Source of the DNA: an uncultured Bacteroidales bacterium
GTDB lineage: Bacteria > Bacteroidota > Bacteroidia > Bacteroidales > FEN-979
Direction: 5' to 3'
DNA: 64,000 nt
NCBI GenBank assembly: GCA_903875045.1
Contig: CAIQUS010000175.1
Location: 10,409 to 74,408, forward strand
The notes under the pieces are model-generated. The model had not been told where the DNA came from, made no database searches, and saw only the letters and a list, made by a program, of their open reading frames with translations. This document shows, in pieces, positions 7,935-55,215 of this stretch; position 1 is the first letter of the stretch, and the number at the start of each line of letters is the position of its first letter. The position numbers and the translations under genes were made by a program.

Positions 7935-7989
7935 AATTGAGGAAAGGCAAAATTGCAGTATTTTGAGTATTTTAGCAAAAAAAAATCCG

Positions 7990-10900
7990 ATGGTAAAACA
8001 ATACGATCTCCTGCTTATCCTGTTTTTTTGTTTTTCGTCAGTAAATACATTTTCCAGTGGTGGCCCCGGTGATACCACCACGGTACAAACCTTTACTTTT
8101 GGTTCGAAGCAGGAAGGCAAATTTCTATTTCCTGATGGGTCGCACCGGTGGGGCAAAATTTTGATGGATTATACCCTTAAATGCAACCCTGCCCAGAATC
8201 CTGCCTGCGGGGAATGGGATTATCTCACCTATACTTATCTGTACAGGCACACCGGTAAATGGGATTCAACCAGGTATACCCATGCCAATTACACCTGGAA
8301 TGGTCAAACACCGGATTCACTGATGTATATGGACAACGATTCGTGGTCATTCATACCTTATTTCGAATATTTCAATCAAACCCTGCCGGCGACAACTGCC
8401 CTGGCTGGTGACAGCACCAGCAAATCCCGGTATTTTTTTAGCAATGATGCCACCGATTCAAGGTCCCAGTTTATTTATACTTCTGCCGAACTTGCCCTGG
8501 CCGGAGTCCTGCCGGGCGAAATCACCGGTTTACGCTTCAAATTTTCAGAAGTTGGAAGTCCACTTAAAAGACTCAGAATCAGGATTAAAAACACAACATC
8601 TGATTCCCTGAATCCTGTAAATATTGAAAGTTCAGGGTTTAACGAGGTGCTGGCCCGTGACTGGAAGTTCGATGGGATTGGCTGGCAGATAATCCCGTTC
8701 ACCTTTCCATTTACATGGGATGGAACCTCGAGCATCATTGTGGATATCAGCTATGAAAAACGCTTGCCTGGCGGGCTGAATGAGACTTTTTCAGGGATTC
8801 CGGCATCAGGTTCTCTGATAAGTTCCGGCGTTGATGACGGATTTTTAAAGTTCCGGGATATGGATTTTGTGAAAGTTCCGGCATCAGTTTTTTCAACACT
8901 CGACAGTGAGGTCACGGTGGCTTTCTGGCAATATGGCGATCCGTTGCTGCAGCCGCAGGATAACACGCTGTTTGAGGGGTTTGACAGTGCCGGCAGAAGG
9001 GTGCTCAATGTTCATCTGCCCTGGAGCAATGGCAGGGTATACTGGGATGCCGGTCGTGATTCGACCGGTTACGACCGCATCAACCAAATGGTGAGTGACC
9101 CTGCGAAATACCGTGGAAAATGGAACCACTGGGCTTTTACCAAGGATGCCATCAAAGGACGGATGAAGATTTATCTGAATGGCCAGCTATGGTTTATGCA
9201 GGGAACCAGATACCGTACTTTTGCGGGAATAAAAACGTTCAGGATCGGAAGCGATGGTTCAGGCACTGCAAACTTTTATGATGGTTTGCTTGATGAGTTT
9301 TCAATTTGGAACAAAGCGCTCAGCGATACGGCCATCCGGGCATTCATGTATCAGGATATTTCAAATAATCATCCCGATTATATGCACTTGCTCGCCTATT
9401 ATCAATTCAATTCCATGGCCGGTTTTACGGCATTTGATGCCTCTCCCGGCGGGCATGATGCAACTTTGTCCGGATATCCTGAATGGCAGGGATACAAGGG
9501 AAAAGATCTTTTCCGGAATTTCAATAAGTTGAACGATCGTCCATGTGTTATTCTGGAACAGGGAAACTACAATTCCGCCACACTCGATTCAACCTTAAAA
9601 GTGGACACCGTTGCTAAATCACCCATTATGATTGTTCTTTATGGCGACACCATTCATCCCTACCTTCCTACCGATACACTCACCAAATACCCTGCATGGT
9701 ATGCTGATTATATTTATAATCCGCACGGGCAGGCCATCGATTCTGCTTTAGTAACCCCAAACGGGATGTTCCGCAAAAAGGATTACATCTATTACGGAAA
9801 GCCCTTCGAACTTCTTGAAAGATTTGAACTGGCAAGGTACATCACCCCTTATGGGAACAACCTGAGCCTGGGAAATGGCTGGACCTGGCAATTTGACCTT
9901 ACCGATTATGCACCGTTGCTGCGCGATTCTGTACACCTTTCAGCCGGGAACTGGCAGGAGTTACTCGATATGAAATTCAGGATGATCGAAGGAATACCAC
10001 CCAGGGATGTCCTTGGAATTATGAATATTTATTCCGGAAATCATGGATATGCCAACGAAAGCCAGCATAACCTTCCGCCAGTTACGGTAATCATTGACAC
10101 CAATGTGCACCAGGCCCGATTAAAGATGCGCATCACAGGACATGGTTTCGGCGGAAACCTCAATTGTTCAGAATTTTGCTCACGCACCAATGAACTGAAA
10201 ATTGATGGACTGCATGCATATAATCACGTTGTATGGCGGGCCGACTGTGGCCTGAACCCCCTTTACCCGCAGGGGGGAACATGGCTCTACGACCGTGCTG
10301 AGTGGTGCCCGGGGGCTGAAGTACGGACGAAAAATTTTGAATTGTCCCATCTGGTCATTCCAGGAGATTCGATGACAATTGATTACGACCTTCAGCAGGG
10401 CTATATCTGGAATGGACAGGGAAGCTGGCCTTATTATGCCATTGAATCTCAGCTAATCACTTATGGGAAGCCAAATTTCAAACTGGATGCTGCCATGGAA
10501 GAGATACTGGCACCAAACGACCAAAAACTCTATAACAGGTATAACCCCCTTTGCGGACGTCCCTTCATTGCCATCAAAAACAATGGCACAGAATCTTTAC
10601 ACAGTGCGGTCATTGAATTCGGCCCGGCAGGAGGGAAAGTTCAATCTTATACCTGGACGGGTAATCTTGCCTTCCAGGATACTGCGCGGATTCTGCTTCC
10701 TGCCATTGACTGGAGCGACTGGACCGGTGGAGATAACCGGTTTTTATTTCGGGTTTCCCATCCGAATGGCGGAACAGACGAGTACACTGTGAATGATGCC
10801 ATGAGCGCCCCATTTGTCATTCCGCCAACATGGGAAAATCAACTCATTTTAAAGTTTAAAACAAATCATCTGGCAAGTTCACTGTCATGGGCTTTAACCG

Positions 10901-11439
10901 ATCAGGATGGTGGTATCGTATACGAGAATGGTCCGTTGGAAAACAATACGATTTATATTGATACTTTCAACTTGTCAAAAGGCTGTTACCGGATGATCAT
11001 CCGCAATGCCGATGGTGAAGGGCTTAATTACTGGGCCAACATGCCACCTTATGGCAACGGTACTTCCGGGTATGCACAGATCAAGAGCATGTCGGGGGCG
11101 TTGATAAAATCTTTCCAGGGAGATTTTGGCAGGGAGGTCGCCCAGAGTTTCACAGTGGGGATGACCATCGATGTACCTGAATTGCATCCCGGGGGATATG
11201 TCAATATCTATCCAAATCCCACACAAGGAAACTTTGATATTGCGATCATTCTCGATCACCCTCAAAAAGTGTCCGTTTACATACATGATGCCATGGGAAA
11301 AAGGATTTACCGGGAAATTTTTAACATGATTGAACGAAAAGTCATTCCCATGGAACTAACCTCCTCCCCTGCTGGAATCTACATTGTTACCATTATTACA
11401 GAAACAGGAACAACCATGAATAAAATTGTGAAATATTAA
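7990..11439 (+). CDS. T9SS-secreted PNGase F-like protein with inserted LamG (concanavalin-A-like) domain
   Basis: The N-terminus TVQTFTFGSKQEGKFLFPD...KCNPAQNPACGEWDYL resembles the first beta-sandwich of PNGase F (CDEWDR region). RITGHGFGGNLNCSEFC...PQGGTWLYDRAEWCPGAEV resembles the second (GWGH...CAEWC...RAGWCPG). A LamG signature LDEFSIWNKALS lies between them. The C-terminus IYPNPTQGNFDI...IVKY is a T9SS sorting domain. ATG at 7990 with a signal peptide is preferred to the track start 7963. Confidence 0.7.
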   Translation: MVKQYDLLLILFFCFSSVNTFSSGGPGDTTTVQTFTFGSKQEGKFLFPDGSHRWGKILMDYTLKCNPAQNPACGEWDYLTYTYLYRHTGKWDSTRYTHANYTWNGQTPDSLMYMDNDSWSFIPYFEYFNQTLPATTALAGDSTSKSRYFFSNDATDSRSQFIYTSAELALAGVLPGEITGLRFKFSEVGSPLKRLRIRIKNTTSDSLNPVNIESSGFNEVLARDWKFDGIGWQIIPFTFPFTWDGTSSIIVDISYEKRLPGGLNETFSGIPASGSLISSGVDDGFLKFRDMDFVKVPASVFSTLDSEVTVAFWQYGDPLLQPQDNTLFEGFDSAGRRVLNVHLPWSNGRVYWDAGRDSTGYDRINQMVSDPAKYRGKWNHWAFTKDAIKGRMKIYLNGQLWFMQGTRYRTFAGIKTFRIGSDGSGTANFYDGLLDEFSIWNKALSDTAIRAFMYQDISNNHPDYMHLLAYYQFNSMAGFTAFDASPGGHDATLSGYPEWQGYKGKDLFRNFNKLNDRPCVILEQGNYNSATLDSTLKVDTVAKSPIMIVLYGDTIHPYLPTDTLTKYPAWYADYIYNPHGQAIDSALVTPNGMFRKKDYIYYGKPFELLERFELARYITPYGNNLSLGNGWTWQFDLTDYAPLLRDSVHLSAGNWQELLDMKFRMIEGIPPRDVLGIMNIYSGNHGYANESQHNLPPVTVIIDTNVHQARLKMRITGHGFGGNLNCSEFCSRTNELKIDGLHAYNHVVWRADCGLNPLYPQGGTWLYDRAEWCPGAEVRTKNFELSHLVIPGDSMTIDYDLQQGYIWNGQGSWPYYAIESQLITYGKPNFKLDAAMEEILAPNDQKLYNRYNPLCGRPFIAIKNNGTESLHSAVIEFGPAGGKVQSYTWTGNLAFQDTARILLPAIDWSDWTGGDNRFLFRVSHPNGGTDEYTVNDAMSAPFVIPPTWENQLILKFKTNHLASSLSWALTDQDGGIVYENGPLENNTIYIDTFNLSKGCYRMIIRNADGEGLNYWANMPPYGNGTSGYAQIKSMSGALIKSFQGDFGREVAQSFTVGMTIDVPELHPGGYVNIYPNPTQGNFDIAIILDHPQKVSVYIHDAMGKRIYREIFNMIERKVIPMELTSSPAGIYIVTIITETGTTMNKIVKY

Positions 11440-14010: not shown

Positions 14011-16101
14011 ATGAAAACTAAACCAGACCTAAATAAACCGGGCACTGATGTAGTAAAAGACATACAACTGAGTGATATTTTCGATATTGACGAGATACAG
14101 CACCTGCAGGATTTATTTTCAGATGCCATGGGTGTCGCGTCCATTATCACCCATCCGGATGGTACGCCAATAACGAAACCGAGTAATTTCTGCAGGTTGT
14201 GCAATGACATTATCCGTAATACAGAAAGAGGACGTGCAAATTGCTATCAGTCGGATGCAATTCTTGGTCGTATGAGCACTTCAGGGGCAATTGTGCAGCC
14301 TTGCCTGAGCGGAGGTTTATGGGATGCAGGAGCCGGCATTGCTGTGGGCGGTAAAAATATTGCCAACTGGTTAATCGGACAGGTACGGAACGAGGAATTG
14401 GATGAGCAGCGAATGATTCGGTACGCCGATGAGATTGGTGCAAACAAAGAAGAGTTCATGGCGGCGTTGAGGGAAGTCCCGATGATGTCCCTTGACCAGT
14501 TTAAAAAAGTTTCGAATATGCTTTTTGCATTTGCCAATGAACTTTCACAAAAGGTTTACAACAATTTTCAACTGAAAATGCAAAATGCTGCACATGAAGA
14601 TGCATTGAACGCATTACGTGAAAGTGAAGAGTTTAACCGCCAAATCATGCAGAATGCCAACGAAGGTATTTGGATGGTTGACATGAATGAAAATACAACC
14701 TACATCAACAGTAAAATGGCGGATATGTTAGGCTATACTGTTGAGGAGATGACCGGAATGAATGTGTCTGACTTTCTGATTCCTGAAGATATCCAGGATC
14801 ACAGAGATAAAACATTTCAGCGGATGGCCGGGAACCCCGGTCATTATGAGCGGCGAATTAAACAAAAAAACGGAGAGGAAATATGGACGATTGTTTCTTC
14901 AAGTTCAATCATCGATAAAACAGGTGTTTATTCCGGTTCGCTCGGTATGTTTCAGGACATCACTGAGCGTAAACAAGCTGAGGAAAAAATCAAAAAAATC
15001 GGACTCCATTATCAGGCCATCATTGAAAAAGCACCTGACGGGATTGTACTGATCAATAACGACGGAGCATTTATCTACGTCAGCCCTGCGGCTGCGAAGA
15101 TGTTCGGACTCAGTGTTGAAGAGGCGATTTCCCGTCACCCCAATGACTACACACATCCTGATGATTTGCCTATGGTTTTAGGCGAATTATTCAAGTTGCT
15201 TGAAGATCCTTCATATACTCCAACCCTGCAATACCGTTTCGCCGATAACACCGGAAACTGGAAATGGATTGAAAGTACGATGAGTAATTTGCTTGCTGAT
15301 CCCAATGTTGAAGCGATTGTGATTAATTTCCGTGATATCTCTGACCGAAAACAGTCAGAAAAAGAGCTACGTGAATTAAACAATGAATTGGATACACGTG
15401 TTCAACAACGTACAACTGAACTGGAGGCAGCCATTAAAGAGCTTGAAACATTTTCCTACTCTGTTTCACATGACCTGAAAGCGCCATTGAGGCACATCAA
15501 TGGATTTCTTGAGATTTTTCTTGAAAAAACATCTGCAAACTTCACGGAAGAAGAACTTGGTTATCTGAAAAACATTTCCCGTTCTGCATCGGAAATGGGG
15601 CTGCTGATTGATGCAATCCTCTCCTTTTCGAGGCTCAACCAGGCTGAATTACGAAAAACCAGAATCCAGTCCTCTGTAATGGTCCGGCAAGTTATTAATT
15701 TCTTTGAACCGGAAATACAAAACAGGCAGATTACTTTCCATGTTGAGCCACTTCATGATGTTCAAGGTGATGAAGGCCTTATCAGGCAAGTATGGACCAA
15801 CCTGATTTCAAATGCGATCAAATATACCGGTAAAAAGTCTGAAGCGATAATCGAAATTGGCAGTTTCTCAACCCCAACTGAAACTGCTTTTTTTGTAAAA
15901 GACAACGGCGCAGGGTTTAACATGAAATATGTACATAAATTATTTGGTGTTTTCCAACGGCTGCATAAGTCACGTGAATTTGACGGGATAGGGATCGGAT
16001 TGGCCAATGTTAACCGAATCGTTAAGCGTCATGGGGGCCATTGCCGGGCCGAAGGCGAACAGGATAAAGGTGCGACTTTTCACTTTAGTATACCGGATTA
16101 A
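14011..16101 (+). CDS. sensor histidine kinase: PocR - PAS - PAS - HisKA/HATPase (class-A transmitter)
   Basis: PocR-type domain (IFDIDEIQHLQDLFSDAMGVASIITHPDGTPITKPSNFCRLC...ANCYQSD...QPCLSGGLWDAG...GQV). Two PAS S-boxes. H-box FSYSVSHDLKAPLRHINGF, N-box NLISNAIKYTG, G-boxes DNGAGF and GIGIGLANV. Confidence 0.9.
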   Translation: MKTKPDLNKPGTDVVKDIQLSDIFDIDEIQHLQDLFSDAMGVASIITHPDGTPITKPSNFCRLCNDIIRNTERGRANCYQSDAILGRMSTSGAIVQPCLSGGLWDAGAGIAVGGKNIANWLIGQVRNEELDEQRMIRYADEIGANKEEFMAALREVPMMSLDQFKKVSNMLFAFANELSQKVYNNFQLKMQNAAHEDALNALRESEEFNRQIMQNANEGIWMVDMNENTTYINSKMADMLGYTVEEMTGMNVSDFLIPEDIQDHRDKTFQRMAGNPGHYERRIKQKNGEEIWTIVSSSSIIDKTGVYSGSLGMFQDITERKQAEEKIKKIGLHYQAIIEKAPDGIVLINNDGAFIYVSPAAAKMFGLSVEEAISRHPNDYTHPDDLPMVLGELFKLLEDPSYTPTLQYRFADNTGNWKWIESTMSNLLADPNVEAIVINFRDISDRKQSEKELRELNNELDTRVQQRTTELEAAIKELETFSYSVSHDLKAPLRHINGFLEIFLEKTSANFTEEELGYLKNISRSASEMGLLIDAILSFSRLNQAELRKTRIQSSVMVRQVINFFEPEIQNRQITFHVEPLHDVQGDEGLIRQVWTNLISNAIKYTGKKSEAIIEIGSFSTPTETAFFVKDNGAGFNMKYVHKLFGVFQRLHKSREFDGIGIGLANVNRIVKRHGGHCRAEGEQDKGATFHFSIPD

Positions 16102-16113: not shown

Positions 16114-18582
16114 ATGAAAGAGGAACCAAAAAGAAAAAACAAAAAGACTGAAAATTTAATTGAGATTCAGTTTATTGACCTTTTTAACCTTGAAAAGGTC
16201 CAGCAGATGCAGGATCTTTTTGCAGATGCTACGGGTGTGGCTTCAATCATAACGCATCCCGATGGTACGCCTATTACGAAACCCAGCAATTTTTGCAGGC
16301 TTTGCAAGGATATCATCCGAAAAACTGAAAAAGGGCTTGCAAACTGTTATCATTCTGATGCAGTGCTTGGTAGTCACAGTAATAGCAAACCTGCGGTTCT
16401 GCCTTGTCTGAGCGGAGAATTATGGGACGCCGGAGCACAAATTACTGTTGGTGATAAGCATATTGCAAACTGGTTAATCGGGCAGGTCAGGAATGAGGCC
16501 TTGGATGAACAGCGTGTTATTCAGTATGCCGATGAAATCGGGGTCAATCAGGATGATTTTTTGGCAGCGCTGCGCGAAGTCCCGGTAATGCCGGTTGATC
16601 AGTTTGAAAAAGTATCGAAATTGCTTTTTTCTTTGGCAATGGAATTTTCTGAAAAAGCACTCAGTAATCTTCAATTGAAATTACAGACGGATGAACAAGA
16701 AAAGGCCAAAGAGACGATCCGTGAAATTGAATGGTTTAACAAGCGTATCATTGAAACAGCCAATGAAGGAATCTGGGTTCTGGATACAGATTACAATACA
16801 ACCTTCCTGAATGCCAAAATGGCTGGAATGCTTGGATATTCGATTGAAGAGGTAATGGCCATGAAAATGACTGAATTTATTTTCCCCGACGATCATCTGG
16901 ATCATCTTGAAAAAAGGGCTCAGCGTGTTGCAGGGAAACCTGGTTTTTATGAGCGTAAGTTTAAACAAAAAAATGGCTCGGCAATATGGACACTTGTATC
17001 ATCTACACCAATCATTGATGAGGATGGCACTTTTATCGGTTCCTTCGGCATGATCCTGGACATCAACGAACGCAAGAAGGCAGATGAAGAACTTCTGGAA
17101 AGGAAAATCAAGTACAGGGGATTGAGTGAAGCAGCTTTTGAAGCGATTTTTTTCTCCGAAAAGGGCATTTGCATTGAACAGAACCAAACTGCAGAAAGGA
17201 TGTTTGGTTATACTTCTGAGGAAGCCATTGGCAGGTATGGAACTGACTGGATAGTACCTGAAGACAGGGCCATGGTCATGGAAAATATGGTGCGAGGCTT
17301 CGAGGAACCTTATGAAGCAACCGCATTAAAAAAAGATGGCACCACGTTCCCTTGCATGTTACGTGGCAAGATGATGCATTACAAAGGGAAAAATGTCCGG
17401 GTTACATCGTTAAACGATATTACCGTTCGCAAACAAACGGAGATTGCGCTCAAGGAGAGCGAGGCACGATTCAGAAACCTGTTGGAAGAGGTAGAATCTG
17501 TCTCCATTCAGGGGTATGGGCCTGATGGTACCACACAATACTGGAACCAGGCTTCGGAGCATTTGTATGGATACACAGCAGAAGAGGCAATCGGAAACAA
17601 CCTCCTTGACCTCATCATACCACCAGAATTACGCGGGGATGTTAAGCAGGCAATCCAGTGGATGGCTGAAACCGGTAAGTCGGTTCCTTCATCGGAATTA
17701 TCTCTGATGCGCAAGGATGGTTCTCGTGTCCCGGTTTTCTCCCACCACACCATCATTAAACTACCCGGCAGGAAGCAGGAATTATTCTGCATTGACATGG
17801 ACCTTACCGAGCGAAAAAAGTCAGAAAACGAGATCCATCAATTGAACCTGGAATTGGATCAACGTGTCATTCAACGCACTGCACAGCTGGAATCTGCCAT
17901 CAGGGAACTTGAATCTTTTTCCTATTCCGTGTCACATGATTTGAAAGCGCCATTGAGGCACATCAACGGATTTCTGAAACTCTTTCTTGAAAACATTTCA
18001 GTCGAACTGACCAGGGAAGAACTTGGGTATTTGAATAAGGTGACTGTTGCAGCAATTGAAATGGAACACCTGATTGATGCAATACTTTCATTTTCAAGAC
18101 TAAATACCACAGAGTTACGAAAAACAACCATTCATTCAACCTTGCTGGTTAAACAGGTAGTCAAATTCTTCGAACAGGAAACATCACAACGAATAATTGC
18201 CTTCAACATCGCCCCCCTGCCCGATATTATGGGCGATGAAGGGATGATCCGGCAAGTATGGACAAACCTGATATCAAATGCAATAAAGTATACAGGTAAA
18301 CTTTCCGAAGCCGTCATTGACATTGGCAGTGAAACTTTGGATGACAAAACAACTTTTTTTATCAAAGATAACGGAGCAGGGTTCAACATGAAATATGCTG
18401 ATAAACTTTTCGGGGCATTCAAAAGACTGCATTCAGCAAGGGAATTCGAAGGTATAGGGATCGGGTTGGCCAATGTTAACCGGATTGTCAGGCGCCACGG
18501 AGGGCACTGCCATGCCACAGGCGAACAGGGTAACGGGGCTACTTTTTATTTTTCAATACCAAACCAACCACCTAATACCTGA
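16114..18582 (+). CDS. sensor histidine kinase: PocR - PAS x3 - HisKA/HATPase (class-A transmitter)
   Basis: The N-terminal ~170 aa are a close paralog of the PocR domain in the preceding gene, with the same four Cys. Three PAS modules follow, then the H-box FSYSVSHDLKAPLRHINGF. Confidence 0.9.
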   Translation: MKEEPKRKNKKTENLIEIQFIDLFNLEKVQQMQDLFADATGVASIITHPDGTPITKPSNFCRLCKDIIRKTEKGLANCYHSDAVLGSHSNSKPAVLPCLSGELWDAGAQITVGDKHIANWLIGQVRNEALDEQRVIQYADEIGVNQDDFLAALREVPVMPVDQFEKVSKLLFSLAMEFSEKALSNLQLKLQTDEQEKAKETIREIEWFNKRIIETANEGIWVLDTDYNTTFLNAKMAGMLGYSIEEVMAMKMTEFIFPDDHLDHLEKRAQRVAGKPGFYERKFKQKNGSAIWTLVSSTPIIDEDGTFIGSFGMILDINERKKADEELLERKIKYRGLSEAAFEAIFFSEKGICIEQNQTAERMFGYTSEEAIGRYGTDWIVPEDRAMVMENMVRGFEEPYEATALKKDGTTFPCMLRGKMMHYKGKNVRVTSLNDITVRKQTEIALKESEARFRNLLEEVESVSIQGYGPDGTTQYWNQASEHLYGYTAEEAIGNNLLDLIIPPELRGDVKQAIQWMAETGKSVPSSELSLMRKDGSRVPVFSHHTIIKLPGRKQELFCIDMDLTERKKSENEIHQLNLELDQRVIQRTAQLESAIRELESFSYSVSHDLKAPLRHINGFLKLFLENISVELTREELGYLNKVTVAAIEMEHLIDAILSFSRLNTTELRKTTIHSTLLVKQVVKFFEQETSQRIIAFNIAPLPDIMGDEGMIRQVWTNLISNAIKYTGKLSEAVIDIGSETLDDKTTFFIKDNGAGFNMKYADKLFGAFKRLHSAREFEGIGIGLANVNRIVRRHGGHCHATGEQGNGATFYFSIPNQPPNT

Positions 18583-18589: not shown

Positions 18590-19240
18590 ATGCCAATGAT
18601 CGATAATAAACTTTTTTTAACCTATCAATCCAGTCTGCTTTCTGGCTCCCGATCGGGCTGCACTCAGATTGTGAACGGTCTGATCAAGTCGGAAATATCA
18701 ATCAAAGAACTGTATATCAATCTTTTTCAGCGTTCGATGTACGAAGTGGGAACCCTTTGGGAACAAAACAAAATATCCGTAGCAACAGAACACCTGTGTA
18801 CATCGGTTACCGAATACCTGATCAGTCTGTGCTACCCTTCGATTTTCTCGGCGGAACATACCGGTAAAAAAGCTATCATAACTTGTACGCCAGGCGAATA
18901 TCATCAGATCGGTGCACGAATGGTAGCCGACTATTTCGAACTTCATGGATGGGATGGCTATTATTTAGGGGCAGATACGCCTGCAGATGAACTGATCAAG
19001 TTTACAACTGAAAAACTCCCAGACCTGATGGCCATTTCCATCAGTGTTTCATTCAACCATGCCAACCTGCTCCGGCTGGTTGATAAAATACGGCATACCT
19101 TTCCCGACCTGACCATTTTGGTTGGCGGACAGGGATTCAGATGGGGAGGCGACGAGGCGTTCCAATCTTTGGAAAATATTTATCTCATCAGGTCCCTCGA
19201 TGAACTTGAAACGAAATTCTTAAATCCCCAGGCAACATGA
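18590..19240 (+). CDS. stand-alone cobalamin (B12)-binding domain protein, CarH/AerR-like
   Basis: Four-helix-bundle motif W-x9-E-H (LWEQNKISVATEHL, nt 18758-18793). Rossmann-type B12 motif E-x-H-x-x-G (GEYHQIGARMV, nt 18896-18913). Start at MPMIDNK (18590), 7 nt after the previous stop. Confidence 0.8.
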   Translation: MPMIDNKLFLTYQSSLLSGSRSGCTQIVNGLIKSEISIKELYINLFQRSMYEVGTLWEQNKISVATEHLCTSVTEYLISLCYPSIFSAEHTGKKAIITCTPGEYHQIGARMVADYFELHGWDGYYLGADTPADELIKFTTEKLPDLMAISISVSFNHANLLRLVDKIRHTFPDLTILVGGQGFRWGGDEAFQSLENIYLIRSLDELETKFLNPQAT

Positions 19241-20358
19241 TGCCCGAAACCTCCCCTATCCTTGCCGACTACATCATGCGCGATTCTACCATGGTTTTCC
19301 TTATCATTGGTAAAGAAGGGAACATTTTGGAATCCAACAATTTTACTGATGCACTTGTTGGTAAGAAGTTAAAAGGCCTTGCATTAAATGAGCTTTTTAT
19401 TGATTTCGGCAAGGCTCTTGACCTGGATCAGCTCTTGAAAGAATCCACTGAAAAAACACTTGTGAACCTTTCTACAGCAGCAAATCTTCCTGAAACGTAT
19501 TACTTCCGGTTTTACGATCTTGGCAACACCATACTAGCTCTGGGTGAAGCCAATAATTATGAGATCGGGCTTTTGCGCAAAAGCATGTTGGAGTTAAACC
19601 AGGAACTGAACAACCTTACCCGGGAACTTCAAAAAAAGAATGCAGAGTTAAAGAAACTCAACGAACTGAAAAACCAATTCCTTGGTATTGCTGCGCATGA
19701 TCTGAGGAATCCGATCGGGATCATCATGGGTTATAGTGATTTTCTTTTGGAAGAATTGATCGAAGAACTTACGCCTGATCAGATTGTAATGCTGGAAACC
19801 ATTCAGAATACAAGTGAGTTTATGCTGCATTTACTGAATGAACTCTTAGACCTCAGCGCCATTGAATCGGGTAAACTGAGATTAGAAAAACAAAAATCAG
19901 ACATTTCAGCCCTGATCAGGAAAAATATCACCATCAATGGTGTTATCGCGGCAAAAAAGAATATTCAAATTCAGATGCAGTCTTTTGAATCCATTCCCGA
20001 TGTATTGTTTGATGAAAACAAAATCGAACAGATACTTAACAACTTGATTAGCAATGCTATAAAATTTTCATTGGCTGGTACGACGGTCAGAGTAAATCTC
20101 TTTTTAACCGGCGACCATGTTACCGTGGCGGTGGCCGATCAGGGCCAGGGTATCCCGCCTCACGAAATTGACAGGTTATTTAAACCATTTCAGGTTACCA
20201 GCGTAAAAAGTACAGGGGGTGAAAAATCAACCGGACTGGGGCTGTCGATCGTACGGAATATTATCCTGGGGCATGGTGGTAAGATATGGGTTGAGAGCAA
20301 GGTCGGTGTCGGGTCGACGTTTTACTTTTCACTCCCCCTCCTGCGACCTAGCCCGTAA
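19237..20358 (+). CDS. histidine kinase with degenerate PAS-like N-terminal domain, translationally coupled to the B12-binding protein
   Basis: Its ATG overlaps the upstream stop (ATGA). H-box FLGIAAHDLRNPIG, N-box NLISNAIKFS, G-boxes DQGQGI and GLGLSIV. Confidence 0.9.
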   Translation: MMPETSPILADYIMRDSTMVFLIIGKEGNILESNNFTDALVGKKLKGLALNELFIDFGKALDLDQLLKESTEKTLVNLSTAANLPETYYFRFYDLGNTILALGEANNYEIGLLRKSMLELNQELNNLTRELQKKNAELKKLNELKNQFLGIAAHDLRNPIGIIMGYSDFLLEELIEELTPDQIVMLETIQNTSEFMLHLLNELLDLSAIESGKLRLEKQKSDISALIRKNITINGVIAAKKNIQIQMQSFESIPDVLFDENKIEQILNNLISNAIKFSLAGTTVRVNLFLTGDHVTVAVADQGQGIPPHEIDRLFKPFQVTSVKSTGGEKSTGLGLSIVRNIILGHGGKIWVESKVGVGSTFYFSLPLLRPSP

Positions 20359-20422
20359 CCGACTTTGGAGAGTTTTGACAAAGAATAAAACCTAAAATCC
20401 GGACCCAAAAACAGTTGAAATT

Positions 20423-20866
20423 ATGACAAAAGATGATTTAATTTTAAAAGCTGAGGCGCTAAGGCAGCCATCGGATCTATCGGCAAAAGAATTTAACGAA
20501 AAAGGTCAGTTTCTGGCTGCAGAAATGAACCGGCTGATGCTTACACGAACTGACCTTGATAACCTGATCGGTCAGGGCAATATCACAATGATGGAGGATA
20601 ACCACCGGAACCATGCCCGGTTCATGTCATCTGTATTTATCTGTTTCCAACCCGATGTTCTTGTTGAAACAGTACTTTGGGTATACAGGGCCTACCGTGC
20701 CCATGGATTTCACCTCACCTATTGGCCTGCTCAGCTCGATCAATGGGTTGAACTTTTGAAGGTACAGCTGTCACCTGAAACGTTTCAGGAAATTTACCCT
20801 TTCTATCATTGGATGATCATCCACCAGTCGGCATTTGTAAATGAAAGCGATAAAATGAGAGGTTAA
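20423..20866 (+). CDS. hypothetical all-alpha His/Trp-rich protein
   Basis: 147-aa ORF in the same transcriptional direction, with small gaps on both sides. I recognise no family. Notable segments are MEDNHRNHARFM, YRAYRAHGFHLTYWP and FYHWMIIHQ. Confidence 0.6.
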   Translation: MTKDDLILKAEALRQPSDLSAKEFNEKGQFLAAEMNRLMLTRTDLDNLIGQGNITMMEDNHRNHARFMSSVFICFQPDVLVETVLWVYRAYRAHGFHLTYWPAQLDQWVELLKVQLSPETFQEIYPFYHWMIIHQSAFVNESDKMRG

Positions 20867-20893: not shown

Positions 20894-23521
20894 ATGGAGA
20901 GTAAAAAGAAAAAGATACTGATTATTGATGATAACAAGGATAACCATGTTGTGCTGAAAGCATTGCTAAACGAGTCGTTCCCCGATATTTCGATCCTGTC
21001 CGCTTTATCTGGTGCAGTTGGCCTTGAACTGGCAGCTTCTGACGACCCTGATGTGATCCTGCTCGATATTATCATGCCTGGCATGGATGGTTTTGAAGTT
21101 TGTCAAAGATTGAAAAATGACAAAAACCTCGGCGATATCCCGGTCGTTTTTGTAACTTCACTGATGGGTGAAAAGGAAACCCGGATTCGTGCCCTGGAAG
21201 TTGGTGCCGAAGCCTTCCTGACCAAACCCGTCGATGAAATTGAACTTACTGCCCAGATCCGTGCCATGTTGAAGATCAAAGCGGCCAACCTTGAAAAACG
21301 TGATGAAAAAAGAAAGCTTGTTTCGGTGGTGGAGGAACAGCTCCTTGAGATAAAATCAACTCAAATTGCCACCCTGAACATGCTCGAAGATGTGACCAGG
21401 GAAAATGAGGCTCGTAAGAAAAGTGAGGAAGCCTTATCCAAAAGCGAAGAAAAATACAGGACCATTTTTGAAAATGTTCAGGATGTATTTTATCAAACCA
21501 ATCTCGAGGGTGCAATTATTGACATCAGCCCGTCTATTTTTTATTTCTCTCAATATACACGGGAGGAACTGATCGGTGCCCCTGTATTCACCTTGTATTT
21601 CAACCGCAGTGACAGGCAAAACCTTATCAATACTATTTTTAAAAATGGCGAGTTAAGAGATTATGAATTAAAGTTTAAGAAAAAAAACGGTGAGATAAAC
21701 TATGTTTCAATCAATGCCCGGTTGATTTACGATGCCAATGGAAAACCAACCCATATTGATGGGGCCATCAGGGATATCCATTTTCGTAAACTGGCAGGAA
21801 ATCGCATGGATATTTCTTCGCGAATCCTGAATTCACTGAATACTTCCTCGATCCTCTCTCATACCATCAAACTCACCATCGACCTTATTCAAAATGAAAC
21901 CGGGTGTGATGCTATTGGAATCCGGTTAAAAAATGGTACCGATTTTCCTTTTTATATCCAGAGTGGTTTCAGTGATGATTTTCTTCGTACCGAAAATACC
22001 CTTCTCGGAAAAACAGAAGCTGGTACAGTATGCCTCGATAACAACGGCAACCCTTGTCTCGAATGTACCTGCGGCCTCGTTATTTCTGATCAAAAAAACA
22101 CCTCAAATCCTTTGTTTACCGAAGGTGGGAGTTTCTTTACAAACTACTCACCTGTATTATTGGATCTTACTGGCTCTGATGAACCCAGACATCACCCCCG
22201 CAACCTTTGTATTCATGAAGGCTTTCTATCATTTGCCCTTATTCCGATTCGTGCGAAAGGGGAAATTGTCGGACTGATGCAGCTGAATGACCGGAAAAAA
22301 GATTGCTTTACCACCGACATGATCCAGTTCCTTGAGAGCATTGGCGAAATTATCGGTGTTGCAGTGATGCGACGACACGCCGAAGAAGCGCTTGAAAGAA
22401 GCCACAAACTGCTTTTTAATCTTTCTGAACAGGTACCGGGCGTAATTTATCAATACAGGCTTTACCCCGATGGACACTCCTGCTTCCCCTATTCGAGTTC
22501 GGGTATGAACGAAATTTATGAAGTGACCCCCGAGGAGGTACGTGAGGATGCGACAGCTGTATTTGGAATGATACATCCCGATGACCACTCTCGTGTTTCT
22601 GAATTAATTTATGAATCAGCCCGTACACTGAAACATTTCGATTGCGAGTACCGTGTCATTCTGCCACGGCAGGGATTGCGCTGGCGGTATAGCGATGCAC
22701 TGCCCCAACGGATGGAGGATAACAGCACACTCTGGCATGGAATTATTTATGACATCACTGCCAGAAAAGAGGTGGAAAAAGAGTTGCTGGAGTTAAACAA
22801 CGATTTGGATAAACGTGTAAACCAGCGCACTGCTGAACTTGAAGCTGCAAATAAAGACCTGGAAGCTTTTTCATACTCTGTTTCCCATGATCTCAAAGCG
22901 CCTTTGAGGCACATCAATGGATTTATCGGGCTCTTTCTTGAGAATAAAACAACAGAATTCACGGAAGAAGAATTGGGATACCTGAAAAAAATTACGGATG
23001 CAGCAGGCGAAATGGCGCACCTGATCGACGCGTTACTTTCATTTTCAAGGCTGAACCTGGCCGAATTGCACAAGGCCAGGATCAATACACCAGAAATGGT
23101 CAGACAGGTTATCAATTTTTTTGAACCGGAAATGCAAAACAGAAAAATCACATTCAATTTGGGAACACTTCCTGAAATAAAAGGGGATGAAGAACTAATG
23201 CATCTGGTTTGGACCAACCTGATTGCAAATGCCATTAAATATACCAGTAAAAAACCTGAAGCAGTTATCGATATTGGCAGTATGTCAACCGATAAGGAAA
23301 CTACCTTTTACATCAGGGATAACGGGGCTGGATTTAATATGAAGTATGCCTCCAAATTATTCGGGGTCTTTCAGAGGCTTCATAAATCAAGGGATTTCGA
23401 TGGCGTTGGAATTGGATTGGCCAATGTGAGCAGGATTGTCAGGCGGCATGGGGGACAGTGTCGTGCAGAAGGGGAACCGGATAAGGGGGCAACTTTTTAC
23501 TTTAGCATTCCCTCATCATAA
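20894..23521 (+). CDS. receiver-PAS-GAF-PAS histidine kinase (class-A transmitter)
   Basis: N-terminal REC (IIDDNKDN...LLDIIMPGMDG...FLTKP). PAS (KYRTIFENVQDVFYQT). GAF with the Cys cluster CLDNNGNPCLECTCG. A second PAS. H-box FSYSVSHDLKAPLRHINGF. Confidence 0.9.
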   Translation: MESKKKKILIIDDNKDNHVVLKALLNESFPDISILSALSGAVGLELAASDDPDVILLDIIMPGMDGFEVCQRLKNDKNLGDIPVVFVTSLMGEKETRIRALEVGAEAFLTKPVDEIELTAQIRAMLKIKAANLEKRDEKRKLVSVVEEQLLEIKSTQIATLNMLEDVTRENEARKKSEEALSKSEEKYRTIFENVQDVFYQTNLEGAIIDISPSIFYFSQYTREELIGAPVFTLYFNRSDRQNLINTIFKNGELRDYELKFKKKNGEINYVSINARLIYDANGKPTHIDGAIRDIHFRKLAGNRMDISSRILNSLNTSSILSHTIKLTIDLIQNETGCDAIGIRLKNGTDFPFYIQSGFSDDFLRTENTLLGKTEAGTVCLDNNGNPCLECTCGLVISDQKNTSNPLFTEGGSFFTNYSPVLLDLTGSDEPRHHPRNLCIHEGFLSFALIPIRAKGEIVGLMQLNDRKKDCFTTDMIQFLESIGEIIGVAVMRRHAEEALERSHKLLFNLSEQVPGVIYQYRLYPDGHSCFPYSSSGMNEIYEVTPEEVREDATAVFGMIHPDDHSRVSELIYESARTLKHFDCEYRVILPRQGLRWRYSDALPQRMEDNSTLWHGIIYDITARKEVEKELLELNNDLDKRVNQRTAELEAANKDLEAFSYSVSHDLKAPLRHINGFIGLFLENKTTEFTEEELGYLKKITDAAGEMAHLIDALLSFSRLNLAELHKARINTPEMVRQVINFFEPEMQNRKITFNLGTLPEIKGDEELMHLVWTNLIANAIKYTSKKPEAVIDIGSMSTDKETTFYIRDNGAGFNMKYASKLFGVFQRLHKSRDFDGVGIGLANVSRIVRRHGGQCRAEGEPDKGATFYFSIPSS

Positions 23522-25982: not shown

Positions 25983-26450
25983 ATGGAAAACCAACCGGCA
26001 GAAATTTTCTGTTTCACCATCGAAAATCAACAGTTTGCGATTCCTTTGACCTGTGTCGACCAGGTTCTTATGGCCGTTGCTGTATCTCCCGTGCCGAATT
26101 CTTCCGAACTTTTACATGGGCTCATCGATTACCATGGAACCCTGGTAGCTGTTATTAACCTTAGGTTCAGACTAAAATTGCCTTTAAAGCCCATCCGCAT
26201 CAGCAACAGATTTATCATTGCCAATACCTCCAAACGGAAAATTGCCCTCGTGGCCGATGAAGTATATGGTGTTATTGTACCTGAGATTAAGGACCTGATT
26301 TCGGCTGATGACCTGGACACTGATTTGGAAGCCACCGGAATTCTCCGTCGTGATGACGGAATCATCCTCATCTATGATATTGAAGGCTTTCTTTCCAATC
26401 AGGATGAAATTTTAATATATGATACAATTGATAATACAATAAATGAATAA
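25983..26450 (+). CDS. cheW: CheW-like coupling protein
   Basis: 155-aa single CheW domain (FAIPLTCVDQVL...LHGLIDYHGTLVAVINLR...IALVADEV). Confidence 0.85.
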   Translation: MENQPAEIFCFTIENQQFAIPLTCVDQVLMAVAVSPVPNSSELLHGLIDYHGTLVAVINLRFRLKLPLKPIRISNRFIIANTSKRKIALVADEVYGVIVPEIKDLISADDLDTDLEATGILRRDDGIILIYDIEGFLSNQDEILIYDTIDNTINE

Positions 26451-26453
26451 GTT

Positions 26454-27932
26454 ATGATCCCGGAGCATCATCTGCAGGAATTAAGGACAATGGTTGCAAT
26501 GCAGCTGGGCTGGGATTTCCCAGCCAACCGCAGCAATGACCTTGAGCGTGGAATTCTTGCTACAGCAAAAGAACTTGGGATCACCGAAACACCAAAGGCC
26601 ATTCACAGCTGGTTGGCTGGTATGTCATGGAATAAAAAGGAACTTGATATTCTCTCCTCCCACCTCACGGTTGGCGAAACCTATTTTTTTCGTGAAAAAG
26701 CTGGTTTGGACGTTTTCAAACAAAGGATCATCCCTGAAATCATCAGAGAGCGCATAGGAAGTGACCAGTACTTCCGCCTCTGGTGTGCAGGATGCTGTAC
26801 AGGCGAAGAACCGTACACCCTGGCCATAATCCTCCATGAATTGATCCCGGATATCCGGAACTGGAAAATTTCAATCCTTGCGACCGACATCAACCGTACA
26901 TTCCTGAAAAAAGCCCAAACCGGAATTTACAGCCAATGGTCATTTCGCGAAACACCCCAGGCAGCAAAAAACAGGTATTTTTCTACAGTTGGCAAAGATT
27001 GGGAAATTATCCCGGAAATCAAAAAGATGGTGAGTTTCTCCTATCTCAACCTCGCTGAAGATCAGTATCCGTCAACGCTGACGAATACTCATAACCTGGA
27101 TGTGATTTTCTGCCGGAATGTATTGATGTATTTCATCCCGCAACAGATCAGGACGACTGCCCAACGCTTCTATCAATCTCTCTCTGACAACGGATGGCTC
27201 ATCACCAGTGCTGTTGAAATGCATGACGACTATTTTTCTGATTTTTCCGGCGTGAGGTGCGAACAAGGCACTTTTTACAGAAAGGTGTCAAAAACTACCG
27301 GAATCCCTAATGCCGCAGATTTGGATCCCCGGATCAGATTCATTCCGCAACGGAGTAAGCCCGTGACCAACAGAAAAGGCAAAGTGGCTCCTTCACCCGG
27401 ATATAAACCTATTGCAGTGAAGTCACTGGAAAAAACCGGAGATCAATTACTTCCCGACTTAAAAACAGTTCAGGATCATTTTGATAAGGGAAGGTATCAG
27501 CTTTGTATTGAACAATCGATCCATTTACTCGCGGTAAAACCGTTGGCCACCAAAGCGTTAACCTTGTTGGTTCAATCTTTTGCGAACATGGGAAACCTCA
27601 CAGAAGCACGAATGTGGGGCGAAAAACTGCTTTTACAGAATGACATAACGGCTGATGCCTATTATCTGGTGGCTACCATATTGATGGAGGAAAATGAACC
27701 TCTGAAGGCCGAATCCACCTTGAAACGGGCGCTGTACCTTGATCCTCAACATCTTTTATCACACTTTCTGATGGGAAACATTGTTCGTCAACTTGGTAAA
27801 AATGTTGTTGCTGCCAAACATTTCAGGAACGTAAAAGACCTCCTGGCACCATTTCAGGATAACGAAGTGGTACCCGGGTCTGAAGGGTTAACCGCCGGAA
27901 GAATGAAATCAATTATAGAAACGATATTGTGA
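26454..27932 (+). CDS. cheR: chemotaxis protein methyltransferase CheR with C-terminal TPR extension
   Basis: ETYFFRE motif. SAM-binding FRLWCAGCCTGEEPYTLAI and ILATDIN. The C-terminal ~130 aa are TPR-like (AYYLVATILMEENEPLKAESTLKRALYLDP), as in WspC/FrzF-type CheR. Confidence 0.9.
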   Translation: MIPEHHLQELRTMVAMQLGWDFPANRSNDLERGILATAKELGITETPKAIHSWLAGMSWNKKELDILSSHLTVGETYFFREKAGLDVFKQRIIPEIIRERIGSDQYFRLWCAGCCTGEEPYTLAIILHELIPDIRNWKISILATDINRTFLKKAQTGIYSQWSFRETPQAAKNRYFSTVGKDWEIIPEIKKMVSFSYLNLAEDQYPSTLTNTHNLDVIFCRNVLMYFIPQQIRTTAQRFYQSLSDNGWLITSAVEMHDDYFSDFSGVRCEQGTFYRKVSKTTGIPNAADLDPRIRFIPQRSKPVTNRKGKVAPSPGYKPIAVKSLEKTGDQLLPDLKTVQDHFDKGRYQLCIEQSIHLLAVKPLATKALTLLVQSFANMGNLTEARMWGEKLLLQNDITADAYYLVATILMEENEPLKAESTLKRALYLDPQHLLSHFLMGNIVRQLGKNVVAAKHFRNVKDLLAPFQDNEVVPGSEGLTAGRMKSIIETIL

Positions 27933-27964
27933 TGAATGTCGAAATTAATACGTAAACTTGACAG

Positions 27965-28477
27965 ATGAAAGATGAACAGTTGATTCTTCAGGAGCGTGCA
28001 AAAAAGATTGCAGGATGGAAAACTGAATTGACATCAAAAGGCGAATCGCTTGTGGTGGTTGAATTTCAGCTTATTCCTGAAAGATATTGCATTGCCGGTT
28101 CCTTTGTTACAGAGGTTTTACCTCTCAAAGCAATCACGCCGATTCCCGGTGTTCCTGCCTTTGTTCTTGGTGTGATGAATGTACGGGGAAAAATCATCTC
28201 CATCATCAACCTTAAAACCTTCTTCAACCTGAAAGAGACAGGTATTACTCAACTGAATAAGATTATCATCGTCAAACAAAACCAAATGGAATTTGCAATA
28301 GTGACCGATGCAATAACAGGGACACGCGAAATTTTACTGAGCAGCCTGAGCGCTCCCCCGGTCACACTCAGTGGCATTGGTGCTGATTATATAAAAGGTG
28401 TCACACCCGATGGGCTTATTCTGCTCGACATTGCGACGGTTTTATCAAGTAAATCAATCATTGTAAATCAAAAATAA
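27965..28477 (+). CDS. cheW: CheW-like coupling protein (second copy)
   Basis: 170-aa CheW domain (YCIAGSFVTEVLPLKAITPIPGVPAFVLGVMNVRGKIISIINL). Confidence 0.85.
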   Translation: MKDEQLILQERAKKIAGWKTELTSKGESLVVVEFQLIPERYCIAGSFVTEVLPLKAITPIPGVPAFVLGVMNVRGKIISIINLKTFFNLKETGITQLNKIIIVKQNQMEFAIVTDAITGTREILLSSLSAPPVTLSGIGADYIKGVTPDGLILLDIATVLSSKSIIVNQK

Positions 28478-28549
28478 ATAAATACTTCCCCCGGAAGTGG
28501 GAGTGAAAAGGTCAGGTTTATTAATCAATTAATCAACAGGAGAAAAATT

Positions 28550-30043
28550 ATGAAATCAAAATCTATTCTCAGTACCCGTTCAAAACTTTTTTTGGGTTTC
28601 GGACTCATATTATTGGGTGTAATTGCCCTGGTAATCGTAGCCTATATTAATATGGTGAAACTGAACAAAATTGAAGATGAAATCATACAATCGTTTGAGG
28701 TTACCGAGATATTGATACAAATCAGGTCGGATGAGAACAGGATGAGAACCCTGATGCTGGAGATGATTCTCAATAAGGATGAGATAAAGAATAAAAAACT
28801 GGAAAAATCGATTCTCGAAAAGGTCGACTCAGTTTCAAAATTTTTATCCCAAATCAAAGAGAAAATTAAATTTTTCCCGGAAAATGTTGAAAAATTTGAT
28901 ACCCTTGAGAAACAAATGATATACTATTGTGAAATCCGCATGCAACTCATTGACTTAATCAAAGCTGATAAATTAGACGACGCAAAAGCCTTTATTGACG
29001 AAAAGGTAGATCCACAATGGGATGTGGCTAGGAATTACACATACACATTGCAAAAATCGCAGCAAAAGCACAGGGACATGAATGATGCAGAATTGAAAGA
29101 TGCATCAAGAATTGAAACTATTACCCTGATTACGATGGGAATTGGTTTGGTAGCACTGTCACTGATCATTTTAGCCTGGATGTTCAGAATGCTTAGAAAG
29201 ATTTTCGCCGAGATCAACAACAGCGTGAATATCCTTGGAACATCTGCCACAGAAATCCTTACTACAGTTACGGAAGTATCCACCGGCGCCACTGAAACGG
29301 CAACCTCTGTTGCTGAAACGGCCACCACCGTGGAGGAAATCCGCCAAACAGCCATGCTGGCCACCCAGAAAGCGCAATCGGTGCTACTTAGCTCACAACG
29401 AGCTTCAGAAGCAGCTGAAAATGGAAAGGAATCTGTTCTTCAAACCATTGAAGGCATGAAACGTATTGACCAGCAAATGAACCTGATCGCAGAAACCATT
29501 GTGAAACTATCAGAACAAAACCGATCCATTGGCGAAATTACATCAACAGTAAACGACATTGCTGATCAGTCTAACCTGCTGGCAGTCAATGCCGCCATTG
29601 AGGCAGCCAAAGCCGGTGAACAGGGACGCGGCTTTGCCGTTGTCGCCCAGGAAATCAGAAGCCTGTCGGAACAGTCAAAACAGGCTACTACTCAGGTGAA
29701 GGAGATTTTGAACGATGTTCAAAAAGCTGTAAATCAAGCCGTAATGGCTACTGAACAAGGATCAAAAGCAGTCGAAAATGGCAGCAATCTTGCCACACAG
29801 AGTGGTGAGATGATCGAAACCCTTGCTGATAGCGTAAATGAAGCAGCCCAATCTGTTATTCAGATTTCAACCTCCATCCAGCAACAGATGACAGGTATGG
29901 ACCAGATTGTACCTGCTTTGGGAAATATTAAACAAGCCAGCGAGCAAAATGTAGTTGGTATCAGGCAAACACAAACAGCAGCCCACAACCTGAATGATCT
30001 TGGGCAGAATCTGAAAAAAATTGTTGAAAAGTTCACTATCTGA
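28550..30043 (+). CDS. methyl-accepting chemotaxis protein (two TM segments, helical periplasmic domain)
   Basis: TM1 LFLGFGLILLGVIALVIVAYI and TM2 ITLITMGIGLVALSLIILAWMF. The conserved hairpin tip reads ADQSNLLAVNAAIEAAKAGEQGRGFAVVAQEIRSLSEQS. I see no obvious HAMP between TM2 and the signalling domain. Confidence 0.9.
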   Translation: MKSKSILSTRSKLFLGFGLILLGVIALVIVAYINMVKLNKIEDEIIQSFEVTEILIQIRSDENRMRTLMLEMILNKDEIKNKKLEKSILEKVDSVSKFLSQIKEKIKFFPENVEKFDTLEKQMIYYCEIRMQLIDLIKADKLDDAKAFIDEKVDPQWDVARNYTYTLQKSQQKHRDMNDAELKDASRIETITLITMGIGLVALSLIILAWMFRMLRKIFAEINNSVNILGTSATEILTTVTEVSTGATETATSVAETATTVEEIRQTAMLATQKAQSVLLSSQRASEAAENGKESVLQTIEGMKRIDQQMNLIAETIVKLSEQNRSIGEITSTVNDIADQSNLLAVNAAIEAAKAGEQGRGFAVVAQEIRSLSEQSKQATTQVKEILNDVQKAVNQAVMATEQGSKAVENGSNLATQSGEMIETLADSVNEAAQSVIQISTSIQQQMTGMDQIVPALGNIKQASEQNVVGIRQTQTAAHNLNDLGQNLKKIVEKFTI

Positions 30044-30050
30044 ACCTGCC

Positions 30051-32276: not shown

Positions 32277-32306
32277 AAGACACTCCCCTGCGCTTTGAGG
32301 AGAAAG

Positions 32307-32444: not shown

Positions 32445-32480
32445 AGTGGTAAAACAGAAGTGTGACGAGGTAAGAATAAA

Positions 32481-55121: not shown

Positions 55122-55171
55122 CGGGCAGGTGGACAGGTGGGCAGGTTGGCAAGTGGGCAAGTGACAGGTGG
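55122..55171. repeat. 8-bp tandem array (family F3)
   Basis: cgggcag GTGGACAG GTGGGCAG GTTGGCAA GTGGGCAA GTGACAG GTGG begins on the base after the TAG stop at 55119-55121. Confidence 0.9.
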
Positions 55172-55215
55172 ATGAATCATTTTGTATCTTTGCAAAAGAT
55201 AAAACTTACCAAAGG

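Follow-up and report, generated by a model that had tools for sequence, protein, structure and literature searches.

We analysed a 64,000-nucleotide stretch of DNA (the window) from contig CAIQUS010000175.1 of an uncultured Bacteroidales bacterium, and focus here on three consecutive plus-strand genes at 18590-20866. They encode a stand-alone B12-binding protein of the CarH/photocobilin type (CBD, for cobalamin-binding domain), a soluble histidine kinase (HK) with a divergent PAS-like domain as its only input, and a small photoglobin-type globin (Table 1). Our favoured interpretation, which we consider probable, is that the three proteins form a sensory cassette in which a split photocobilin-type adenosylcobalamin (AdoCbl) photoreceptor controls the kinase in trans. 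An earlier reading made from the letters alone (the sequence-only reading) had proposed a CarH-type B12-binding protein as the detachable sensor of the kinase, and we report below how its claims fared.

Table 1. Coordinates of the cassette genes, their parts and the adjoining kinase genes in the window.
Feature	Coordinates	Strand	Basis or remark
Stand-alone cobalamin-binding protein (CBD)	18590..19240	+	Four-helix bundle and Rossmann B12 domain; Pfam B12-binding_2, B12-binding
CBD codon W57	18758-18760
CBD codons E67-H68	18788-18793
CBD codon H105	18902-18904		Predicted lower axial ligand
Soluble histidine kinase, 373 aa	19237..20358	+	Pfam HisKA and HATPase_c
Kinase, PAS-like domain	~19258-19560		Residues ~8-108
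Kinase, helical linker	~19561-19668
Kinase, HisKA	19669-19872
Kinase, HATPase_c	20011-20340
Phycobiliprotein-like globin (photoglobin-type), all-helical, 147 aa	20423..20866	+	AlphaFold2 fold, Foldseek, fusions in relatives
REC-PAS-GAF-PAS-HisKA-HATPase_c hybrid protein	20894..23521	+	Pfam; 27 nt past globin
PocR-PAS-PAS-PAS histidine kinase	16114..18582	+	Pfam; ends 7-13 nt before B12 gene
Paralogous PocR-PAS histidine kinase	14011-16101	+

Counted from the first ATG, the CBD is 216 aa long. Pfam finds B12-binding_2 (residues 14-79, E = 3e-12) and B12-binding (residues 94-185, E = 3.6e-16), both above their gathering thresholds, and no further domain. The helical bundle begins about 13 residues into the protein and an N-terminal MerR-type DNA-binding domain gives no Pfam match, in agreement with the earlier claim that an output domain is missing from this protein. 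Because identical metagenome contigs annotate a 214-aa product and the aligned homologues begin with MI(T/D), the second ATG at 18596 is likely the start codon rather than the one at 18590.

As the sequence-only reading had pointed out, the protein carries the CarH-type motifs W-x9-E-H and E-x-H-x-x-G. The first, in LWEQNKISVATEHL, holds W57, E67 and H68, and the second, in GEYHQIG, holds E103, H105 and G108, with a spacing of 37 from H68 to H105. All six residues, as well as E58, are invariant in an alignment of 33 homologues with 43-73% identity. The closest relatives (73%) belong to uncultured Bacteroidales and, like the type IX secretion sorting domains encoded in the window, indicate a Bacteroidota genome. 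In a phmmer alignment, GtlW, EH, GeyH and GadtP of the CBD are placed on evGeaWhrgeigVAeEH, GerHeiGa and yLGpdtP of Thermus thermophilus CarH (TtCarH), so that the motifs do fall on the matching CarH positions, numbered W131, E141/H142 and H177. The four motifs of the light-responsive CBD signature defined with SignatureFinder, GxxW, EH, GxxH and GxxxP (PMC11796333), are all present as G54-T-L-W57, E67-H68, G102-E-Y-H105 and G127-A-D-T-P131, with the Gly of GxxH being Asn in part of the 33-homologue family. Assignment of the CBD to the CarH/photocobilin type is thus confirmed at the level of sequence hallmarks.

Searched with phmmer against all PDB sequences, the CBD best matches the photocobilins SasPcob (8J2W/8J2X, E = 1e-18) and AbPcob (8J2Y, 6.5e-13), followed by the CBD of a Chloracidobacterium MerR protein (CtMerR-CBD, 8JBS) and then by TtCarH (5C8A) and LitR (~3e-9 to 7e-9), with enzymatic and carrier corrinoid proteins ranking far below the photoreceptors. 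AerR (7TE2) is not among the matches at E ≤ 0.01, so the likeness to AerR-type proteins that had been suggested holds as a functional analogy but not by sequence, where photocobilins are closest and CarH comes next; a globin-CBD fusion from the relatives described below matches AerR weakly (0.0074). The residue following W57 is the invariant Glu58. Its TtCarH equivalent, H132, is required both for the bis-His ligand switch of the light state and for dissociation of the tetramer to monomers (PMC10442372). SasPcob has no upper His, yet its dimers fall apart into monomers under light, with water/hydroxide-ligated cobalamin (PMC10979010), and together with the invariant Glu58 this makes the photocobilin route the relevant precedent for any photoresponse of the window CBD. 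Hence the motif assignment of the sequence-only reading stood, whereas its picture of a CarH-like photoreceptor module gives way to a photocobilin-like one. A further conserved position is Cys24 (codon 18659-18661), located in helix 1 of the bundle, which is invariant in 33/33 stand-alone homologues, is kept in 8 of 15 globin-CBD fusions, is Ala in SasPcob, and could be a ligand-attachment or redox residue.

The ATGA coupling of the CBD gene to the kinase gene, noted earlier, is real: the CBD stop overlaps the kinase start at 19237-19240. Pfam places HisKA at residues 145-212 (1.3e-14) and HATPase_c at residues 259-368 (4e-29) of the kinase, and the presence of both the HisKA phospho-acceptor and HATPase_c makes it a class I (HisKA) kinase; the translation shows the H-box AAHDLRNP and the N/G-box-like motifs NLISNAIKF, DQGQGI and GLGLSI. 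The N-terminal ~135 residues have no Pfam match in the window copy, while among 43 orthologues of this domain, taken from the genome loci described below, 23 match PAS_8 and 20 match PAS_9, all weakly (best 3.6e-6). Judged from these weak profile matches, the domain appears to be a divergent, family-specific PAS-like domain, so that the PAS assignment of the sequence-only reading survives in a qualified form. A homologue search with the kinase N-terminus alone returned nothing at E ≤ 1e-3, the word index probably being dominated by the coiled-coil linker.

The conservation of the CBD/kinase pair was investigated by scanning one genome per GTDB species with an alignment of the CBD family, which gave at least 570 confirmed loci, the best 80 of which were analysed. 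More than 12 phyla are represented in all. The bacteria comprise Bacteroidota, Desulfobacterota, SAR324, Spirochaetota/Leptospirales, Planctomycetota, Acidobacteriota, Fibrobacteria, Verrucomicrobia, Kiritimatiellota, Omnitrophica, Clostridia, Thermotogae and one betaproteobacterium, and the archaea Methanofastidiosum, Methanoregula and Thermoplasmata, including Saliniplasma and Natronoplasma. When residues 1-135 of the window kinase served as query against the open reading frames (ORFs) of these loci, the B12 gene proved to have an adjoining homologue (E = 1e-8 to 1e-58) in 78 of the 80 genomes, directly downstream on the same strand in 76 and upstream on the opposite strand in 2. For the 76 same-strand pairs the inferred gap between B12 stop and kinase start has a median of -1 nt; it is at most 20 nt in 70 pairs, the genes overlap in 40, and ATGA occurs in 13.

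A reciprocal scan of metagenome contigs, seeded with the PAS-like domain, returned 60 loci, 48 of them with at least 500 nt upstream. A B12-binding gene lies immediately upstream of the PAS-like gene in 47 of these 48, a count in which 13 loci with over-extended start codons (overlapping ORFs) were scored as having the B12 gene upstream, and the sole exception, L141, is a partial 155-aa match. Comparative support for a functional link between CBD and kinase is strong and beyond chance, and the PAS-like domain is exclusively associated with B12 genes. Conservation of the pair in other genomes, which had been named as a check on the earlier proposal, is borne out by the 78 adjacent cases, and the link to the kinase stands in both scans (78/80 and 47/48); what has to be revised is the two-gene unit, since the globin had been overlooked and the unit has three genes.

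The outputs attached to the B12-associated PAS-like domain vary, with HisKA-HATPase in the majority of cases and HK-REC-Hpt, HK-Hpt, PAS-HK(-REC) and HK-REC-REC in others, and with GGDEF at four loci (L058, L060, L073 and L117). Such swapping of outputs is what one would expect of a dedicated docking/input module for the B12 protein. Proteins of ~200 aa that consist of the PAS-like domain and a ~70-aa tail with no Pfam match were also seen (L055, L056, L068 and L080, and on the opposite strand L044 and L071), and these proteins, with neither kinase nor GGDEF, may be adaptor-only versions.

The globin gene starts 64 nt downstream of the kinase gene. The 147-aa product has no Pfam, NCBIfam or PDB sequence match, and its assignment rests on fold and fusions because neither the single sequence nor the profile matches a solved structure. 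The family consists of ~150-aa proteins that are 55-79% identical across phyla, with 34 invariant positions, including MM-DNHRN--RF and V-TV-WV--AYR-HGF---Y-PAQLD-W, and with the highly conserved motifs MMEDNHRNHARF and VETVLWVYRAYRxHGFxLTYWPAQLD; Asp59, within MMEDNHRNH in helix 54-73, is nearly invariant and is a candidate counterpart of the conserved Asp that photoglobins have on their ligand-pocket helix. AlphaFold2, given the family alignment, predicts an all-helical protein with a predicted local distance difference test (pLDDT) score of 97.3. The top 50 Foldseek matches of this model in the PDB are nearly all allophycocyanin, phycocyanin and the biliverdin-binding smURFP, with template-modelling (TM) scores of 0.6-0.68 and E-values of only 0.03-0.3 despite a probability of 1.0, and the two exceptions are cytoglobin and neuroglobin (TM about 0.46). 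Like a photoglobin, the protein thus has a fold nearest to phycocyanin/allophycocyanin, no heme-globin Pfam match and a place next to a B12 gene.

Searching 1.84 billion representatives with the globin profile returned 557 relatives. Several of them, 366-382 aa long (E = 1e-28 to 1e-33), are fusions of the globin with B12-binding_2 and B12-binding (P0321, P0330, P0345, P0360 and P0367) and carry the W-x9-EH and ExH motifs. The model of P0321 (pLDDT 91, predicted TM score 0.85) has a CBD half that matches CarH, CtMerR-CBD, LitR and SasPcob; for the SasPcob match, some 205-211 alignment columns superimpose with a root-mean-square deviation of 1.9-2.1 Å. Of the genome loci, 61 have room on both sides of the CBD/kinase pair, and 37 of these carry the globin next to it, after the kinase in 32 and before the B12 gene in 5. 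From the modelled fold and these associations, we infer that the globin is a third subunit of the sensor. By sequence, the SasPcob globin domain (8J2W) escapes the family profile, and the window globin therefore belongs to a divergent clade. Among the relatives, P0275 is fused to REC with no B12 domain, and the globin may also partner phosphorelay proteins on its own, as input or output.

How such a cassette could work is suggested by homology and precedent, from which the cofactors, the light stimulus, the contacts of the CBD with the PAS-like domain and with the globin, and the direction in which the kinase is regulated are all drawn. The CBD would bind AdoCbl base-off/His-on via H105, with the adenosyl group in the W57/E67-H68 pocket, and would form head-to-tail dimers in the dark. 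The globin would dock on the CBD in trans, like the fused globin of photocobilins, and contribute or shield a second tetrapyrrole, acting as an optional second chromophore or shielding subunit. Green light would cleave the Co-C bond, the adenosyl group would be lost, and the photoproduct would be an aquo/hydroxo-cobalamin monomer as in SasPcob; the bis-His state of CarH is not expected because residue 58 is Glu, not His. The altered oligomeric state of the CBD would change its contact with the PAS-like domain, thereby switching autophosphorylation of the kinase and phosphotransfer to the REC-domain proteins encoded downstream.

Several observations weigh against this interpretation, whose mechanism is a computational prediction throughout. 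Mirror-tree co-variation of CBD and PAS-like domain is moderate (r = 0.54), too weak to serve as an argument for physical co-evolution of the two, and among close relatives no CBD-kinase fusion was found. About 40% of the loci have no adjacent globin, pointing to an accessory role of this protein beside the CBD/kinase pair, and the gap in sequence between it and the SasPcob globin means that its ligand may differ. Strict anaerobes, inhabitants of sediments and methanogens make up most of the hosts, for which the use of light sensing is not obvious and which may not have a canonical O2-dependent heme oxygenase; in the window itself, no heme oxygenase, bilin reductase or cobalamin genes were found. 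One apparent fusion, the 822-aa 'B12' ORF of L073, was rejected as such, as it has a C-terminal CBD and no other domain and is probably an over-extended ORF.

The alternative that survives best keeps the three-protein complex and replaces the signal: the kinase would be gated by corrinoid availability or identity (AdoCbl versus other forms), or by the redox or O2 state of cobalt. We regard this as unlikely but worth serious consideration. It fits a distribution dominated by anaerobes and by methanogens from sediments and anoxic waters, and the lack of bilin-synthesis genes nearby; CarH chemistry couples photo- and redox steps (PMC10442372), and AerR-type stand-alone CBDs work by binding particular cobalamin forms. 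On the other hand, the invariant W-x9-EH pocket and the full light signature separate photoreceptors from enzymatic and carrier CBDs, AdoCbl in such a pocket is intrinsically photolabile, and the partner globin is of a bilin-binding lineage.

Less probable still, to the point of being a rather remote prospect, is that the globin is the primary sensor, detecting gas or redox state through heme or another non-bilin ligand, with the CBD as a scaffold or secondary input. A globin fold in which His61, His64 and His94 never vary, nor do many aromatic and Arg residues, would suit such a role, as would the cytoglobin and neuroglobin among the lower fold matches, the globin-REC fusion P0275 with its missing CBD, and the lack of a sequence match to the biliverdin-binding SasPcob globin. 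Against this, the best fold matches are almost all phycobiliproteins and biliverdin-smURFP, with heme globins at a TM of only about 0.46; the family is fused to CBDs as photoglobins are; photoglobins are described as non-heme-binding (PMC8717448); and the globin is missing from ~40% of the loci while the CBD/PAS-kinase pair is nearly universal. Lastly, the reading of the CBD as a corrinoid methyl-carrier (MtbC/MtaC-like) that lies beside signalling genes by chance is effectively refuted and was rejected: the Joint Genome Institute calls homologues 'methanogenic corrinoid protein MtbC1' and there are weak NCBIfam matches to MtbC, MtaC and MtgC, but these score 19-33 bits against cut-offs of 215-450, methyltransferase genes are not adjacent here or at related loci, in 76 of 80 of which the next gene encodes a kinase or GGDEF protein, the photoreceptor motif W-x9-EH is invariant, and the best solved relatives are photoreceptors.

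For the split photoreceptor that we favour, the photocobilins (SasPcob and AbDPcob; 8J2W/8J2X/8J2Y) are the nearest precedent, being the closest solved relatives of the window CBD. They share W-x9/10-EH and E/DxH motifs, have no CarH upper His, and pair the CBD with a phycobiliprotein-like globin. Zhang et al. (2024, PMC10979010) showed that the fused proteins bind both AdoCbl and biliverdin and can control a diguanylate cyclase in trans, and regulation of an enzyme in trans by a stand-alone photocobilin resembles what we propose. They differ in being one polypeptide, whereas the CBD and globin of the window are separate genes with the kinase gene between them; in their globin, to which the divergent clade of the window is not linked by profile; in output, which here is a histidine kinase reached through a PAS-like domain and not a fused diguanylate cyclase; and in their actinobacterial hosts, as against mainly anaerobes and archaea for the window cassette.

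The nearest genomic precedent is the survey by Schneider et al. (2021, PMC8717448), which reports stand-alone photoglobins 'almost always' beside B12-binding (B12-binding_2 and B12-binding) and two-component genes and predicts a coupled light-sensing bundle, with none of the loci studied experimentally. As far as could be read, it does not single out the translationally coupled CBD/PAS-like-kinase core or a dedicated PAS-like docking domain with swappable outputs. The BBAG-2 globins, which are stand-alone, of the photoglobin lineage, encoded with B12-binding proteins and devoid of the CXRD Cys, bind biliverdin (Rockwell et al., 2023, PMC10151467); these Myxococcales loci have heme oxygenase and bilin-reductase genes nearby, which the window has not, and the hosts of the cassette are anaerobes.

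With CarH/LitR (TtCarH 5C8A/5C8D) the window CBD shares the fold, the residues of the AdoCbl pocket and the lower axial His in E/DxHxxG, and the proposal shares the principle of transduction by a light-driven change of oligomeric state. It differs by having no MerR DNA-binding domain, by a separate kinase as output in place of DNA binding, and by the Glu in place of H132. AerR/PpaA, which acts with CrtJ/PpsR, is likewise a stand-alone cobalamin-binding protein that has no output domain and acts on a separate regulator, apart from the missing sequence similarity reported above. AerR works with hydroxocobalamin, in which His is the upper ligand, and targets a transcription factor, not a kinase.

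The sequence-only reading had stated that associations of B12 domains with kinases were noted bioinformatically and that none had been characterised, and this agrees with the literature we found: no paper was found that characterises a B12-protein/histidine-kinase system or a B12-gated histidine kinase. In that literature, the characterised B12 photoreceptors are DNA-binding repressors (CarH/LitR), anti-repressors (AerR) and fused enzyme regulators (photocobilin-diguanylate cyclase). The photoglobin/B12/kinase operon type was catalogued computationally in the 2021 survey and is hence not categorically new. As far as we have checked, three elements are new: that the translationally coupled CBD/PAS-like-kinase pair forms a conserved core, that the PAS-like domain, whose outputs are swappable, is associated exclusively with B12 genes, and that anaerobes and archaea have a split version of the system with a globin from a divergent clade. 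From the genome comparisons, the minimal unit can be given as CBD and ~110-aa PAS-like docking domain, with the globin as an optional part.

If confirmed, the cassette would be the first natural B12-gated two-component sensor and a new output class for B12 photoreceptors, and it could provide a compact, modular green-light two-component switch for optogenetics. It is commonest among anaerobic bacteria and archaea, and one may ask why non-phototrophic anaerobes would sense light, perhaps as a proxy for the oxic surface, and what tetrapyrrole could serve as ligand of the globin in hosts that may have no O2-dependent heme oxygenase. A bolder version, which we advance only tentatively and consider somewhat less likely than not, is that of a horizontally mobile three-protein photoreceptor with two tetrapyrroles. 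In it, a histidine kinase, or a diguanylate cyclase in some lineages, would be gated via the PAS-like docking domain by the AdoCbl-CBD together with a bilin-type globin acting in trans. Strict anaerobes, and among archaea methanogens and Thermoplasmata, might thereby perceive green to red light, or light combined with oxidants, and the cassette would as such be the first natural B12-gated two-component system.

The cassette lies in a tightly packed run of plus-strand genes. The hybrid protein encoded just past the globin is a candidate phospho-acceptor and next step of the relay, and a REC-PAS-PAS-HK-REC protein is a further member of the run. In other genomes, REC-containing genes that commonly follow the cassette encode sigma-54 activators, LuxR, GGDEF, HD-GYP and HisKA_2 proteins and hybrid kinases, and the cassette acts like a transferable input module wired to circuits that differ between lineages. 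PocR-like domains beside the cassette are absent from the 80 other genomes but for one distant match, so a functional connection between PocR and B12 was dropped, and the two upstream PocR kinases are probably lineage-specific context in the same operon, outside the conserved cassette. A third kinase, at 37164-38690, has a PocR fragment only (Pfam match at residues 22-62).

The PocR-PAS kinase, the PocR-PAS-PAS-PAS kinase and the hybrid protein have a near-identical phospho-acceptor region, FSYSVSHDLKAPLRHINGF, and C-terminal core, which suggests a recent paralogous expansion. The H-box of the neighbouring kinases is SHDLKAPLRH, as compared with AAHDLRNP in the cassette kinase, which marks the cassette as a module apart and not as the product of local duplication. 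Rfam and tRNA scans of the window found nothing, including no cobalamin riboswitch, and a sigma-70 promoter/terminator scan of 13.5-27 kb gave the same counts as shuffled sequence and was thus uninformative, with Bacteroidota promoters lying outside the model.

On a wider scale, 14011-48734 is a one-strand (+) run of ~34 kb that consists almost entirely of signalling genes, with roughly 17 histidine or hybrid kinases whose inputs include PocR, PAS, GAF, TPR, CHASE4, Tll0287-like and SBP_bac_3 domains. Downstream of the cassette, it holds a complete che-type cluster (25983-33587, +) of CheW, CheR-TPR, CheW, a methyl-accepting chemotaxis protein (4HB_MCP_1), CheA-CheW-REC and CheB, followed by about ten more kinases up to 48734, where the run ends with a single-domain REC protein (48306-48734). 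Farther on, two sizeable plus-strand ORFs (50566-52065, 499 aa; 57843-59180, 445 aa) match nothing in Pfam at E ≤ 1e-5. Type IX secretion system proteins with a Por_Secre_tail are encoded on either side of the signalling run, at 7963-11439 and 55168-57615.

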